Assembly (NCBI GenBank): GCA_965219995.1
Contig: CBDCOX010000002.1
Coordinates: 4,064,001 to 4,128,000 of the forward strand
DNA: 64,000 nt
Source: Candidatus Latescibacterota bacterium
GTDB lineage: Bacteria > Latescibacterota > UBA2968 > GCA-2709665
Direction of reading: 5' to 3'
Shown here: piece by piece, positions 45,013 through 55,944 of the stretch
How the letters are laid out: every line of letters starts with the position of its first letter
Numbering within the stretch: position 1 is the stretch's first letter
Notes under the pieces: model-generated
The model's input: the letters and a program-made list of their open reading frames with translations, nothing else
The model's database searches: none
Told to the model about the DNA's origin: nothing
Made by a program: the position numbers and the translations under genes

Positions 45013-45024
45013 GCCTTTGTGACA

Positions 45025-46158
45025 ATGACAACCAACTTCTGCAAACTGTTTTCCCGTATCGCGGTGCTGTGTTTTCTCGTAGCCTGCGGCGGGAAAGAAA
45101 AACCCGCCGCCCCGGCGCCGGAACCGGCGCCTGCCGAGACCACGGATAACACCCCCCGGCAGCCCAGACCCCTGTTGTCGGACAGTACGTTCGGCGCCGA
45201 CTCGAACCCCACCGGCAATCCCATCGGCGGGGGAGACGGATACGATGAACTGGTAGAGGAAACCGACTACCTGGTTACCAACCGGGCGGAGCTGCTCGAC
45301 GCGCTCAAGCAGGCGACGCGGGGACAGGTGGTCTATCTGGCAGACACCGCCAGGGTGGACCTTACCGGCGACCAGAGAATCGAGATCGCCGGCGGCGTCA
45401 CGCTGGCAAGCGGACGGGGCAAGCCCGATACCGAAGGCGGCCTGGTTTACTCAAAGGAACTGGAGACGATTCCACTCTTTGTCGCCACCGGTCCGGACGT
45501 GCGCGTGACCGGACTCCGGCTGGAGGGCCCGGACACGATGAGGCGCACGGAGCAGATGAGGCAGCTCAGTGCGGAAGGACGGTACTACAGCATCCCCAAC
45601 TCGCGGGCCATCGAGACCTTCGAACCACGTCTGGAAGTGGACAACTGCGAACTCTTCGGCTGGAGTCACGGCGCGATTTTCCTCCGGGCCAATTCAACGG
45701 ACAACCACATTCACCACAACTATTTCCACCACAACCAGCGACACGGTCTGGGATACGGCGTGGTTATGGACCAGTCGGAAGCCCTGATCGAGGCCAACCG
45801 CTTCGACTGGGGCCGGCACCACATCGCCGGGACGGGCAGGCCCGGCACGAGCTACGAGGCCCGCTACAACCTGGTCCTGGAAAACGCCAACAGCCACAGC
45901 TTCGACATGCACGGCGGCCGGGACCGGGACGACGGGACGGACGTCGCCGGCACCGTAATCCGGATTCATCACAACACGTTTCTGGCCGTCGACGTGGCCG
46001 CGGTCGTCATCCGGGGCGTTCCCGAGGAATACTGCGACATCTACAACAACTGGTTCATCCACTCTGTCCCGGGCGTCGCCGTCAAACAGGTCAACGCCAA
46101 GGGAAACGTGCGGCACTACGCGAACCAGTACACCAACGATCGGGTCGTCAAGGACTGA
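45025..46158 (+). CDS. Lipoprotein with right-handed parallel beta-helix, copy 1
   Basis: Lipobox LVAC, Pro-rich linker, HIHHNYFHHNQ..GLGYG and FDMHG motifs. Confidence 0.8.
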   Translation: MTTNFCKLFSRIAVLCFLVACGGKEKPAAPAPEPAPAETTDNTPRQPRPLLSDSTFGADSNPTGNPIGGGDGYDELVEETDYLVTNRAELLDALKQATRGQVVYLADTARVDLTGDQRIEIAGGVTLASGRGKPDTEGGLVYSKELETIPLFVATGPDVRVTGLRLEGPDTMRRTEQMRQLSAEGRYYSIPNSRAIETFEPRLEVDNCELFGWSHGAIFLRANSTDNHIHHNYFHHNQRHGLGYGVVMDQSEALIEANRFDWGRHHIAGTGRPGTSYEARYNLVLENANSHSFDMHGGRDRDDGTDVAGTVIRIHHNTFLAVDVAAVVIRGVPEEYCDIYNNWFIHSVPGVAVKQVNAKGNVRHYANQYTNDRVVKD

Positions 46159-46636: not shown

Positions 46637-46919
46637 GGTGAGACGTAAGAGGGTAGACGGTAGATGACATCCTTGCCCGATTGGTTGCTCCCTTATGCCT
46701 CTGGCAAGATGTGAAACCGCACAGGGCAATAAAACCGGTGAGACGTGAGACGGTAGACGGTAGAGGAAGACTCTTGCAGCAGTGTTTCCGCATCAACCGT
46801 GCCTGTTTATCTACCGCTTTCGTAACGGCAAGAAACGCCATAGGGCGCAGACATCATCTCCCGTCTCCCGTCTTACGTCTACCCGTTCTTCATGCACTCA
46901 CATCCTCTCCCGTCTCACC
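46637..46919. repeat. Heptamer-armed inverted-repeat element (core A plus core B), paralogue of element 1
   Basis: GGTGAGACG...CGTCTCACC ends; core A 46673..46729, core B 46782..46838. Confidence 0.8.
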
Positions 46920-46931
46920 GCCTTTCTTGCA

Positions 46932-48059
46932 ATGAAAACGACCAATTACATACTGATTTCCTGTCTCGCGATGCTGTTTTTTCTAGCGGCCTGCGGCGGC
47001 GAGGAAACGCCCCCTGCCCCCGAACCGCAACCGACCGAACCGACGGGCGGACGGGACGTGAGTAACCGCGCGCTGCTATCCGACGACAACTTCGGGGCCG
47101 ACTCGAATCCCACCGGCAATCCCATCGGGGGCGGAGAGGGATACGATCAGCTGGTGGAGGAGTATGACTATTTCGTTACAAATCGCGCGGAGCTTCTGGA
47201 CGCGCTCACGAAGGCGACCGGGGGGCAGGTGGTCTACGTGGCGGACACCGCGCGAGTGGACCTGACCGGCGACACGGACATCCAGATCCGGGCGGGCGTC
47301 ACGCTGGCCAGCGGCCGGGGCAAGCCCGATACCGATGGCGGGCTTATCTTTTCTAAACAGCTGGATACGGCCCCGCTGTTCGTCGCCGCCGGTCCCGACG
47401 TTCGCCTTACCGGCCTGAGGCTGGAGGGGCCGGACTCAATGCGGCGCACCGAACAGATGACGCAACTCCTGCGGGAGGGGCGGTATTACAGCATACCCAA
47501 CTCCAGGGCCATCGAGACCTTCGAAGAGAGGCTGGAGGTGGACAACTGCGAACTCTGGGGCTGGAGCCACGGTGCGATTTTCCTGAGGCGGAATTCGACG
47601 GACAACCACATCCACCACAACTACATTCATCACAATCAGCGTCACGGTCTCGGCTACGGCGTGGTGATGGACAATTCCGAAGCGCTCATCGAAGCCAACC
47701 TGTTCGACTGGTGCCGGCACCACATTGCCGGCACCGGCAGGCCGAATACCAGCTACGAGGCCCGATACAACATGGTCCTGGAGAACGCCAACAGCCACAG
47801 CTTCGACATGCACGGCGGCCGGGACCGGGAAGACGGAACGGACATCGCCGGAAACCTCATCCTCATTCACCACAACACGTTTCTCGCCATTGACGTGGAA
47901 GCGGTCGTCATCCGGGGAATTCCACGGGATATCTGCGACGTCTACAACAACTGGTTTATCCACTGGCTCCCGGCGACGGCGATCAAGCAGGTCTATGCCA
48001 CGGGCAATATGAGGAACTACTCGAACCAGTACACGCACACCCGGGTCGTGAAGGACTGA
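46932..48059 (+). CDS. Lipoprotein with right-handed parallel beta-helix, copy 2
   Basis: Lipobox LAAC; closely similar to copy 1 along the whole mature domain. Confidence 0.8.
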   Translation: MKTTNYILISCLAMLFFLAACGGEETPPAPEPQPTEPTGGRDVSNRALLSDDNFGADSNPTGNPIGGGEGYDQLVEEYDYFVTNRAELLDALTKATGGQVVYVADTARVDLTGDTDIQIRAGVTLASGRGKPDTDGGLIFSKQLDTAPLFVAAGPDVRLTGLRLEGPDSMRRTEQMTQLLREGRYYSIPNSRAIETFEERLEVDNCELWGWSHGAIFLRRNSTDNHIHHNYIHHNQRHGLGYGVVMDNSEALIEANLFDWCRHHIAGTGRPNTSYEARYNMVLENANSHSFDMHGGRDREDGTDIAGNLILIHHNTFLAIDVEAVVIRGIPRDICDVYNNWFIHWLPATAIKQVYATGNMRNYSNQYTHTRVVKD

Positions 48060-53550: not shown

Positions 53551-53556
53551 AAAGAA

Positions 53557-53610
53557 GCTATCAGCTATCAGCCGTCAGCTCAAATCAAAATCGAAAATCA
53601 AATTCAAAAT
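53557..53610 (+). repeat. Short tandem repeats (GCTATCA heptamers followed by TCAAAA-like hexamers)
   Basis: GCTATCAGCTATCAGCCGTCAGC then TCAAATCAAAATCGAAAATCAAATTCAAAAT. Confidence 0.6.
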
Positions 53611-53637
53611 CCCCTTTCCCCAAATTCCCTAAGGGCG

Positions 53638-53783
53638 GGGAGACGCAAGACGTGAGACGTGAGAGGATATCAGTGCCCAATGGTGTTTCTTGTCGTTACG
53701 ATAACGGTCGAGAAACAGGCACGGTTAGCGCGAAAACACTGTGGTGACGTTATCATCTACCGTCTTCCCTCTACCCTCTTACC
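53638..53783. repeat. Heptamer-armed element carrying core B in reverse orientation
   Basis: Left arm AGACGCAAGACGTGAGACGTGAGAGGAT; 53683..53739 is a reverse-complement homologue of core B; right arm ATCATCTACCGTCT. Confidence 0.8.
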
Positions 53784-54126
53784 GCATTTGCCTGGGCGCG
53801 GGGCCTGCTATATGCATAGCGCGAACCCCCTCACAGGATGCACAGGATCTGCTGCCCTGGCAGCAAAGGTGGCACATCAATCCGCGTCGCTGGACGGATC
53901 AGCGCGCTCTGCTCTGATAGCCGTCCGGTAAGGAAATACCTTTGTAGACTGGTTGGCACCTGTACGATGAGGAATTCCGTCGACTTGAAGCAAAGACATA
54001 CAGCGAGAGGCAAACAGCGGAATCTCTTTGAAGCCGTGAAGTTGGCCTTCCTGGGATGCCATTCGCCAGCTCCGATGTGTGGTTGTTGAAGGTATTCTGA
54101 GTGTGGACACCGAACAGGAGATAGAT

Positions 54127-55317
54127 ATGCAGACTGAACGAGAGAAGTGGAAGCCAGGTCCCGAAACGATTGAATCTCTGTCCTCGCTGATCCGGTCGAA
54201 ACCCGAGGAAGTGCGGTGGACGGAAATCGGCTGGGAGACGGACCTCTGGACGGCACGTCGCCGCGCGGCAGCGGTGAACAGACCGATGTTCATCTGGGCG
54301 ATGAACGGAAACCCGCTCGGCTGCGTCTGAAACAATGGCATCGCGGGCCGTGAGTCCGTTTTCTCCCATCCCGATATTATCCGGGTCCTCAACGATTCCT
54401 ACGTTTCCGTTGCGGACAACTGCAGCTACACCCAGACGCAGAAAGACGCCAAGGGCGAGTTCTTCCGCCTCGTGGCGGAACAGGGCCATTACGGCGGGCG
54501 CACAGAACCCACGGCCACCAGGCAGGGATTGTACGCGTGTACCTCGGAGGGAGAACTGCTGGGGTCCATCAACACGCGGGATGCCGCCCCGCTCCTGGAA
54601 GTGCTCGAGCAAAGCCTGGAAAGGTGGCGCCAGCGCCCGGCCGGGAGCGCGTCGGACGATATTCCCGATACCTATTCCGTCGATCCGAGACTCGGATGGT
54701 CCTATCCGGAAAACGGACTGGCGCTCAAAGTGACGGTCCGCGACCTCCCGCGGAATTCCGACGAAGTGGACGCGCGGCACAACATCGACTTCGCGTGGTT
54801 TACAGAGGAGGAGGTCCGGTCTCTGGTACCCGGGGATGCCCGGCAAGGCCGGACCTGGCGCGCGCCGGATTTCTTCACCAGACGTCTCGCCCTGCGCCAC
54901 TTCATCGACACGGTCCGCGGGCAGTCGCCCGGATGGCGGGAGGAAAACCTGAAGGACGGAGAGTTCCGGCTGACCGTCGAGTCCGCCGAAGCCGATCTCA
55001 TCCGGCTCCGCATAGACGGACGCATCCACCTCGAAGCGGAACCCACGTATGAAACGAATCCCTTCAGCAAGCTTACGGTGGACAAGCCACGGGGTCTGAA
55101 CCTGATCCTCTACGGCATGCTCGCGTTCGATTCCCGGCGGCGGACGGTCGAATCCTTCGACGCCGTCGCGACGGGCGACCGCTGGGGATATACCACCTAC
55201 AACGTGCGCTTCGACGATCCCGGCCCGGCGCCCATCGGTTTCGCGTTCGAACTCGCGTCGGACGATCCCATCGAACGCACCCCGCCCGCCTCCATCGGGC
55301 GGAACTACTTCGCCTGA
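54127..55317 (+). CDS. Probable selenoprotein, thioredoxin-like fold with CxU motif (UGA at 54328..54330), 396 aa
   Basis: AGGAG RBS and ATG at 54127. The ORFs 54079..54330 and 54472..55317 share a frame with only one TGA between them (MNGNPLGCV-U-NNGIAGRESVFSHPDIIRVLNDSYVSVA). A hairpin follows the TGA. Confidence 0.75.
54335..54369 (+). promoter_or_regulatory. Candidate bacterial SECIS hairpin
   Basis: Upper stem GCGGGC/GUCCGU with loop CGUGA starting 19 nt after the UGA; possible lower stem AUGG/CCAU. Confidence 0.5.
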
Positions 55318-55349
55318 CGCGTCATCGCCGAAACACGTACAGCAAAACA

Positions 55350-55386
55350 CGCCCCCGCAACGGCTTGTCGAGACGTTGCGGGGGCG
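55350..55386 (+). terminator. 13-bp perfect hairpin downstream of the selenoprotein candidate
   Basis: CGCCCCCGCAACG / CGTTGCGGGGGCG; no clear U-tract on the plus strand. Confidence 0.5.
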
Positions 55387-55397
55387 CGTGTGTTGGG

Positions 55398-55536
55398 GTG
55401 GGGCAGACATTCCCGTCTGCCCGCATCGCTCAAAATGAAAGGTCGGCCGATCGCCGAAACTGTCATCCTGAGGAAGCTGCCAGGCCTGCCGGCGCGAATC
55501 ATTGGCAGGCCGGCTGACGAAGGATCTACTGCGGCA
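55398..55536. repeat. Composite REP-like direct repeat, left copy
   Basis: GTGGGGCAGACATTCC..TCTGCC and CTGTCATCCTGAGGAAG...GGCCTGCC..GGCAGGCC..GACGAAGGATCTACTGCGGCA, repeated at 56186..56298. Confidence 0.85.
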
Positions 55537-55605: not shown

Positions 55606-55944
55606 CTAAGGTGGCGCGTGAGTTGACGGGATCCCGATATACGGGCATTTCGACAAGCTCAATGACCACGTTTTGGTAGGTGGTCTTCCACTCCGCTCGG
55701 GAGGGGTGAGTGAATATTCCGTCGATTCTTTATTCAGTGGATTTCGAACGCTACCTTCAAACGGGTCGGCGGTGTAATAAAAAATCCGATAGAGATCAAT
55801 CCCGCACAACTTACAGTGAGATCTTATTTTCTCAATTTGACTGAATATATCCTGAGCGGTTGGAGATTTCGCGCTCTTCCCATGTAGGTTCTTCTTGAAC
55901 CATTCGCCGTCAATGAGGATTGCATATCTATCGGGGAAACTCAT
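55606..55944 (-). pseudogene. Truncated NYN (LabA/DUF88, PIN-fold) ribonuclease
   Basis: YAILIDG and LYRIFYY...PF...NP motifs; similarity ends after about 80 aa; the QKGVD/GDSDF catalytic half is missing; low GC. Confidence 0.72.

Follow-up and report, generated by a model that had tools for sequence, protein, structure and literature searches.

Gene structure at the locus

Translated through an in-frame UGA, positions 54127-55317 of the plus strand of the window (the whole 64,000-nucleotide stretch of Candidatus Latescibacterota DNA analysed here) form a single ORF of 396 residues that ends in a TGA stop. The sole internal stop is the TGA of codon 68 (54328-54330), in the motif C-V-U-N-N-G, the residues around Sec68 being G-C-V-U-N-N-G. 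An ORF listing under translation table 11 breaks the gene into two fragments, 54079-54330 and 54472-55317. The sequence-only reading had described these as an ORF pair in one frame, parted by a single TGA, with 47 open codons after it and a second ORF lacking a convincing ribosome-binding site. Each of these points was confirmed: the TGA stands at codon 68 in the context that had been quoted, codons 69-115 are open between the two fragments, and direct reading found no site ahead of GTG 54472 comparable to the AGGAG in front of ATG 54127 (Table 1). In the close relatives L009-L019 and L021, too, the corresponding ATG has a site of the GGAG type in front of it.

The gene is single-copy, and its own genome contains no paralogue. 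An assembly error as the source of the TGA, which had been raised as a possible objection, is excluded by a contig from run X4, possibly the source of this DNA, that equals 53900-55500 with 0 differences, and by the presence of TGA at this column in 80 distinct sequence contexts. From two RNA libraries (X19 and X20; share of words 0.05-0.06) there are contigs of a relative that cover 54146-54754 and 54146-54675 and run across the UGA; being contigs, they may be DNA and are no demonstration of transcription. A search for sigma-70 promoters at the locus found none, and the inverted repeat just 3' of the stop is absent from the output of a terminator scan that allows loops of up to 8 nt.

Table 1. 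Features of the predicted selenoprotein gene and its immediate surroundings (positions in the window)
Feature	Position	Strand	Remarks
Shine-Dalgarno-like AGGAG	54116..54120	+	6 nt ahead of start ATG; GGAG-type in close relatives
Full gene, 396-aa predicted selenoprotein	54127..55317	+	no signal peptide, probably cytoplasmic
Predicted thioredoxin-fold domain, residues ~26-173	54202..54645	+	DsbD-gamma / AGR / DUF255 / UAS type
Cys66, candidate resolving thiol	54322..54324	+	two residues ahead of Sec; conserved, with the role presumed
In-frame TGA, predicted Sec68	54328..54330	+	N-terminus of helix 69-77; register of the first Cys of CxxC
Putative bacterial SECIS hairpin	54343..54359	+	6-bp stem, loop CGTGA, 18 nt from UGA to loop
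R132-Q133-G134, candidate active-site residues	54520..54528	+	before strand 134-138; conserved in Sec forms
C-terminal beta-rich domain, residues ~190-392	54694..55302	+	conserved polar residues
13-bp perfect inverted repeat, 11-nt loop	55350..55386	.	just 3' of stop; possible terminator or processing hairpin

No hydrophobic, signal-like N-terminus follows the ATG led by the ribosome-binding site, and from its sequence the window copy is probably cytoplasmic. A simple hydropathy test for a signal was positive in 39 of 80 TGA forms, mostly from Planctomycetota and some from Poribacteria; many Planctomycetota copies and some of those in Poribacteria, with signal peptides, would act outside the cytoplasm.

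Multicopy elements occupy both intergenic flanks (window 53551-53990 and 55390-55520). The blastn pieces in the genome number 141 for 53551-53880, 21 for 53880-53990 and 56 for 55390-55520, at about 78-87% identity, and these elements also pile up in sequencing contigs. On the minus strand, window 55606-55944 holds an ORF of 112 aa that looks truncated and has no Pfam hit, with a weak 5'-3' exonuclease hit (E 0.0086); its beginning resembles that of an NYN/PIN nuclease. Further away, two lipoprotein-like paralogues, each with a region of right-handed beta-helix, lie in tandem on the plus strand at window 45019-46158 and 46782-48059.

Conservation of the UGA and the selenocysteine machinery

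All 34 close loci compared, namely the window and 33 related loci from GTDB genomes that were chosen by their likeness to the query (33-91% identity), have TGA at the Sec column, with similarity on either side of it. The related loci come from Latescibacterota (the closest, 91%), Gemmatimonadota, Poribacteria, Pirellulaceae/Planctomycetota and Chloroflexota. Within its own phylum the family was recognized in 45 of 168 genomes; 47 of the 52 matches cover the Sec column, and there is one TGA in each of the 47. In a sample of 401 genomes of Planctomycetota (the phylum of genome G004) it was found in 131, and a TGA lies within 140 of the 150 matches listed, out of 192 matches in all, the TGA position having been checked in fetched loci only. 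The ten listed matches without TGA comprise two with Cys, five with Ser or Asp, one that is 5'-truncated, one with AGA at a contig end and one with TGA upstream of the match. Over all fetched loci, 89 distinct contexts (a set deliberately enriched with non-TGA cases) gave 80 TGA, two TGT, seven others and no TAA or TAG. Of the earlier expectation that homologues would carry TGA or Cys, the first part held; Cys also occurs and is rare, most non-Sec forms having Ser, Asp or Ala.

The genome check that had been suggested was positive for all four genes: selA, selB, selC and selD are above the cut-offs in the same genome (98.6% complete, 7.6% contamination), where selA, selB and tRNA-Sec (anticodon TCA) are clustered at C2:1802578-1806100 and selD carries an in-frame TGA of its own. 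Among the 31 genomes behind the first loci, selA was found in 28 and tRNA-Sec in 28; two genomes (G020 and G028, completeness not given) have the TGA form and showed neither selA nor tRNA-Sec. In the own phylum, selA is present in 43 of 45 carriers, the two without it being 80-81% complete; G075 (80% complete) has the TGA form without selA. In the Planctomycetota sample, selA occurs in 127 of 131 carriers versus 172 of 270 non-carriers, kin in these counts not being independent. The TGA form is absent from all four selA-less carriers there; in three of them both Cys and Sec are gone, and the fourth has no N-terminus.

On both sides of the UGA there are about two synonymous changes for each amino-acid change (94:45 before and 234:101 after). 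As the relatives are not independent, these and the other counts are overstated. A true stop, leaving either a pseudogene or two proteins of 67 and 281 aa, would agree with public gene calls, which split the family; most of the best 150 representatives start past residue 68, and 33 short N-terminal fragments are on record. We regard it as very improbable, however, given that no TAA or TAG occurs at the column in the 89 contexts, that the break would fall inside one folded domain, that purifying selection acts on either side of it, and that the downstream hairpin covaries and the TGA form tracks selA. A reading of TGA as Trp or another residue, through a changed code or a suppressor, is scarcely credible: UGA is not generally reassigned, because CCA is the anticodon of tRNA-Trp and the gene itself terminates in TGA, and in addition the sole TCA anticodon belongs to tRNA-Sec and no homologue with Trp at the column was seen.

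Based on the TGA in 34 of 34 loci, the presence of selA, selB, tRNA-Sec and selD in the genome and the covarying hairpin, read-through of the codon-68 UGA as selenocysteine is, in our judgement, nearly beyond doubt. The two annotated fragments are almost certainly one enzyme of redox type. The case for selenocysteine rests on the comparison because the hairpin of a single sequence is not above chance.

The putative SECIS element

As the sequence-only reading had it, a GC hairpin with G at loop position 2 follows the UGA, its loop beginning at the 19th nucleotide (a spacing of 18 nt). The stem pairs 54343-54348 with 54354-54359, the G in the loop is followed by U, and the two shortest stretches have computed energies from -7.7 to -9.8 kcal/mol. 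The bacterial SECIS model given in the Fig. 2 legend of PMC13188914 has a loop of 3-9 nt, a stem of 4-16 bp, G in the first two loop positions, a spacing of 16-37 nt and an MFE of at most -7.5 kcal/mol, and the window hairpin, with its loop of 5, stem of 6, G at position 2 and spacing of 18, agrees with that legend.

The hairpin alone is not more stable than shuffled sequences (z +0.55 to -1.42 over four stretches), and a loose SECIS pattern fits 4159 of the 48,980 candidate TGAs of the genome. A seven-pair stem, named by the analyst, was scored on 29 distinct sequences: 89.2% of the cells were paired and five of the seven pairs had changed on both sides, a degree of pairing that 0 of 500 shuffles attained and from which slid controls (up to 53.2%) stayed distant. 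RNAalifold by itself predicts six of the named pairs. A stem of at least 5 bp stands at this register in 52 of 80 TGA forms, versus 7.0 expected from synonymous resampling with the amino acids fixed, and in one of nine non-TGA forms, which is the contig-end case; in the other 28 TGA forms, mostly from Planctomycetota, the strict stem is shorter than 5 bp. Codons 73-77 are identical in all 12 sequences of the genus, including CGT for Arg75, a codon used for three of the 41 Arg in the gene; several codons ahead of the UGA are also invariant, so that this identity has a supporting role. In short, the conservation and covariation of the hairpin are above chance in these alignments, whereas the single-sequence hairpin is not, and the SECIS reading is borne out by covariation over the 29 sequences rather than by stability.

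The thioredoxin-fold domain and its active site

In the predicted structure (pTM 0.94), both halves of the product fold into one domain, so that the UGA cuts a confidently predicted thioredoxin fold, with the first helix and strand before it and the remainder after it. In an ungapped register, U68 falls on the first Cys of the DUF255 CxxC, on the Sec of VPGUxxT proteins and on the Sec of selenoprotein N-type proteins, and both the model and this register place Sec68 at the thioredoxin nucleophile position. The thioredoxin-like layout proposed from the sequence was thereby upheld. There is no CxxC or UxxC; 78 of the 79 Sec forms have Gly at U+3, and a Cys stands at -2 instead. R132-Q133-G134, ahead of strand 134-138, lies at the presumed place of the thioredoxin cis-proline loop, Q133-G134 preceding the strand at which the Pro would be expected.

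The residues around this site differ in frequency between Sec forms and non-Sec forms, a contrast inflated by relatedness among the Sec forms: Cys66 (74/79 versus 9/20, being replaced in 5/79 Sec forms), M59 (79/79 versus 4/20), N69 (78/79 versus 1/20), N70 (79/79 versus 8/20), R132 (76/79 versus 5/20), Q133 (79/79 versus 7/20) and G134 (79/79 versus 18/20). The scaffold residues W36, P53, W57, G61, R75, G142, R205 and D261 are kept in both. At the Sec column, Cys is found in five of 20 non-Sec forms and in two of the 150 Planctomycetota matches listed, and the non-Sec forms mostly have Ser, Asp or Ala. Sec forms thus far outnumber Cys forms, which is unusual. We read this pattern as a Sec-dependent site that decays upon loss of Sec; a conserved Cys-only enzyme is not evident among the sequences compared. 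That the locus carries a real selenoprotein gene, belonging to a Sec-dominant, two-domain family of thioredoxin fold, seems to us established with very little doubt.

C-x-U is a short two-chalcogen motif, CxxC is absent and a cis-proline apparently so, and many of the predicted selenoprotein ligands are metals according to PMC13188914; the inserted Sec and Cys66 might therefore bind a metal or metalloid (Cu, Hg, As or Zn) in a chaperone or detoxifier rather than in a redox catalyst. Such a function appears unlikely, as Sec stands at the thioredoxin nucleophile position, in the same register as in selenoprotein N, VPGUxxT and DUF255, and no metal-resistance genes recur among the neighbours. The non-Sec forms that lack Cys and Sec keep the two-domain scaffold, several (P0035, P0039, P0043, P0044 and P0125) are fused to regions that are presumably Ser/Thr-kinase-like or FecR-like, and a gene which we take to be ECF-sigma-like lies near four of 32 loci. 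These facts would suit a Sec-containing redox sensor or signalling module, in which the beta domain would present a binding surface that changes with the oxidation state; such a mode of action on partner proteins has been proposed for selenoprotein N. Stand-alone Sec forms dominate, however, and keep a catalytic-looking cluster of invariant polar residues, while the fusions are a few non-Sec proteins, and we hold a sensor to be improbable.

Comparison with catalogued families

The query is unmatched in Pfam and NCBIfam, family members give weak scattered hits, and a PDB sequence search with the family profile gave a best E of 0.21. The closest catalogued families differ from it in several respects. 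VPGUxxT proteins (NCBIfam NF041382 / NF041383, OS_HP5) share the fold subgroup and have their Sec ahead of V[FL]SHP at the matching register, and they match the thioredoxin domain with an hhalign probability of 96.4-97.2%. They differ in that their motif is VPGUxx[CT], in which U+3 is a resolving residue, the loop is short, NNP stands at the cis-proline position, the C-terminal part is another one, and Cys forms are common. The NF041382 and NF041383 models gave weak hits in six and three of 146 members (best E 8.6e-4) and none in the query. Membership in this family was rejected, the VPGU motif being absent and the query below the curated cut-off. From DsbD-gamma-like, AGR, DUF255 (PF03190) and UAS proteins (PDB 3f9u, 2lst, 3ph9, 3ira and 2ju5), the window protein differs in having no CxxC but Sec with an upstream Cys, and its family is below the Pfam thresholds and has an added C-terminal domain.

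The CxU/PxGxxU selenoproteins in Table 1 of PMC13188914 (rhodanese form 3, UshA-like, ferredoxin-thioredoxin reductase, Brachyspira Sec.1 and TsoC) share the decoding mechanism and motif spacing but are different families: their NCBIfam models matched none of the 146 members at E <= 0.05. Brachyspira Sec.1, according to PMC5330540, belongs to PF13192 and is a small protein whose Sec lies in a short extension of the N-terminus. TsoC (NF045708, NEPxGxxU), a model of 87 positions, was rejected by the same count of 0/146 at E <= 0.05. No entry of the 2026 table of 119 prokaryotic selenoprotein families in PMC13188914 fits by motif and model. In the literature searched there was no description of the family or of a bacterial selenoprotein N, and Haft and Tolstoy 2025, BSepDB Table S2 and Deng et al. 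2026 could list the family. It is apparently uncatalogued, and the earlier suggestion of a poorly described family agrees with the lack of Pfam and NCBIfam hits and with its absence from the 119-family table.

Relation to selenoprotein N

The thioredoxin domain aligns with its counterpart in selenoprotein N-type sequences with an hhalign probability of 96.8% (E 2.7e-10, 113 columns), with U on U. The score alone does not single out selenoprotein N, because VPGUxxT (96.4%) and DUF255 (89.8%) also match. The layout is more specific: with selenoprotein N, and not with VPGUxxT or DUF255, the protein shares a long loop ahead of Sec (15-16 residues from the strand start, as compared with 10-11 in those two families), a Gly at U+3 and an Arg at U+7. 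Both proteins also pair a thioredoxin domain with a beta-rich domain. Selenoprotein N (SELENON/SEPN1) differs, however, in having S-C-U-G where the window protein has C-x-U, in its N-terminal transmembrane helix and EF-hand, neither of which is present here (no Pfam EF-hand), and in the order of the domains, with the beta domain before the thioredoxin domain. The SCUG motif and layout follow PMC12839072. Membership in selenoprotein N was rejected, as SCUG, the transmembrane helix and the EF-hand are lacking and the domain order is reversed.

The comparison sequences were retrieved with a short motif, which yielded animal-type proteins about 540-595 residues long that carry SCUG and give weak EF-hand hits; no database names them, and their label rests on the SCUG motif (as described in PMC12839072), those weak hits and length. 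A full-length comparison of A3 with A5 gave a short match only. The likeness to selenoprotein N noted from the sequence, which concerned the thioredoxin-like region, stands (96.8%, U on U, register), and the active-site layout of this domain is, on alignment, truly selenoprotein N-like; it is qualified in two ways, VPGUxxT scoring alike (96.4-97.2%) and the protein being no member of the selenoprotein N family.

The C-terminal domain (residues 190-392) is beta-rich, spans about 205 residues plus a linker, and conserves the polar residues R205, D206, N219, D221, R253, D261, N359 and R361. It had been put at about 230 aa and called unrecognised; the size was too large, and the second point agrees with the lack of a clear solved relative. 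Its comparison with the beta domain of selenoprotein N covers 102-103 columns and gave a probability of 1-3% on shallow alignments. With a deeper alignment hhalign gave 27-34% (E 4e-4 to 7e-4), and 5-6% in the reverse direction. None of 40 column shuffles reached this score and a reversed alignment fell short of it (best 17.5 versus about 30), and the control with DUF6263 gave 0.3%. Profile-to-sequence scoring showed enrichment above the 99th percentile of 7344 decoys (34 of 244 and 6 of 55), and no score exceeded the best decoy. Homology of the two beta domains, in swapped order, is possible and weakly supported by these alignments, and we put forward a domain-swapped relative of selenoprotein N as a minority reading, at about one chance in three. 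Tentatively, the same two modules in opposite orders might make the protein a soluble cousin of this human myopathy protein, in which Sec is the rule, Cys cannot readily replace it, and loss of the selenium machinery leaves a catalytically dead scaffold.

Bacterial SCUG genes were found in Poribacteria and Planctomycetota. With a short SCUG pattern, neither the own genome nor any of five Poribacteria genomes had shown a selenoprotein N-like gene; a wider search found such genes. In Poribacteria (the phylum of G001), loci L137-L149 hold selenoprotein N-like SCUG genes in tandem arrays; the SCUG pattern with at most one mismatch occurs in 97 of 121 genomes, up to 14 times in each, with a near-empty control, and these genes have no Pfam or NCBIfam hit. 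One selenoprotein N orthologue from Poribacteria was reportedly described in a doctoral thesis. In Planctomycetota, selenoprotein N-like genes were seen in eight of 251 genomes (L233-L241); the one at L238 is without the thioredoxin part, that at L237 has SCUPSG, and L240, a weak hit, contains a beta-domain-like piece only, behind repeats that we take to be HEAT-like.

Proposed mechanism

The most satisfactory explanation as a whole, and in our estimate a probable one, is a selenocysteine protein with Sec as the nucleophile and the beta domain choosing the substrate. SelB would bind the hairpin 18 nt after the UGA and deliver Sec-tRNA, and the ribosome would thus make the 396-residue protein, a step strongly supported by the comparison of loci. 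The target of the selenolate would be an oxidised centre of sulfur or oxygen on a specific substrate, namely a disulfide, a sulfoxide or a peroxide. Since U+3, where the resolving residue usually stands, is occupied by Gly, the intermediate would be resolved by Cys66, forming a selenenylsulfide, or by an outside thiol, after which the thiol system of the cell would re-reduce it. N69/N70, together with R132/Q133 at the presumed cis-proline position, would shape the active site. The C-terminal beta domain, which packs in a fixed position, could select the substrate, a role to which we give an even chance; for Sec as a redox nucleophile the chances are good, and a selenol-dependent reductase is likely. 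The gene neighbourhood is shared only within the genus, and across 32 loci no neighbour occurs in more than five, so that it points to no substrate or partner; the neighbours are topoisomerase subunits, a short-chain dehydrogenase, an aldo-keto reductase and a malate/lactate dehydrogenase-like gene.

Extent of the family

At E <= 0.001, 1638 representatives at 50% identity match the family. It would add a large family to the bacterial selenoproteome, one whose genes are cut in two by public annotation, and offers a natural test of when sulfur cannot replace selenium. If the link to selenoprotein N covers both domains, a small soluble bacterial protein would become a tractable model for an enzyme with poorly defined chemistry.

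In P0035, P0039, P0043, P0044, P0125 and L115, a Sec-less two-domain unit is located behind a kinase-like or FecR-like region or before a region that is presumably SecD-like. At L255 (G298:C55:11000-24000) a family member and a VPGUxxT selenoprotein gene are about 2.5 kb apart, in what is possibly a small selenoprotein cluster. Two family copies are about 18-23 kb apart at L264-L265 (G120) and in G113, and in Planctomycetota there are up to five family matches per genome.
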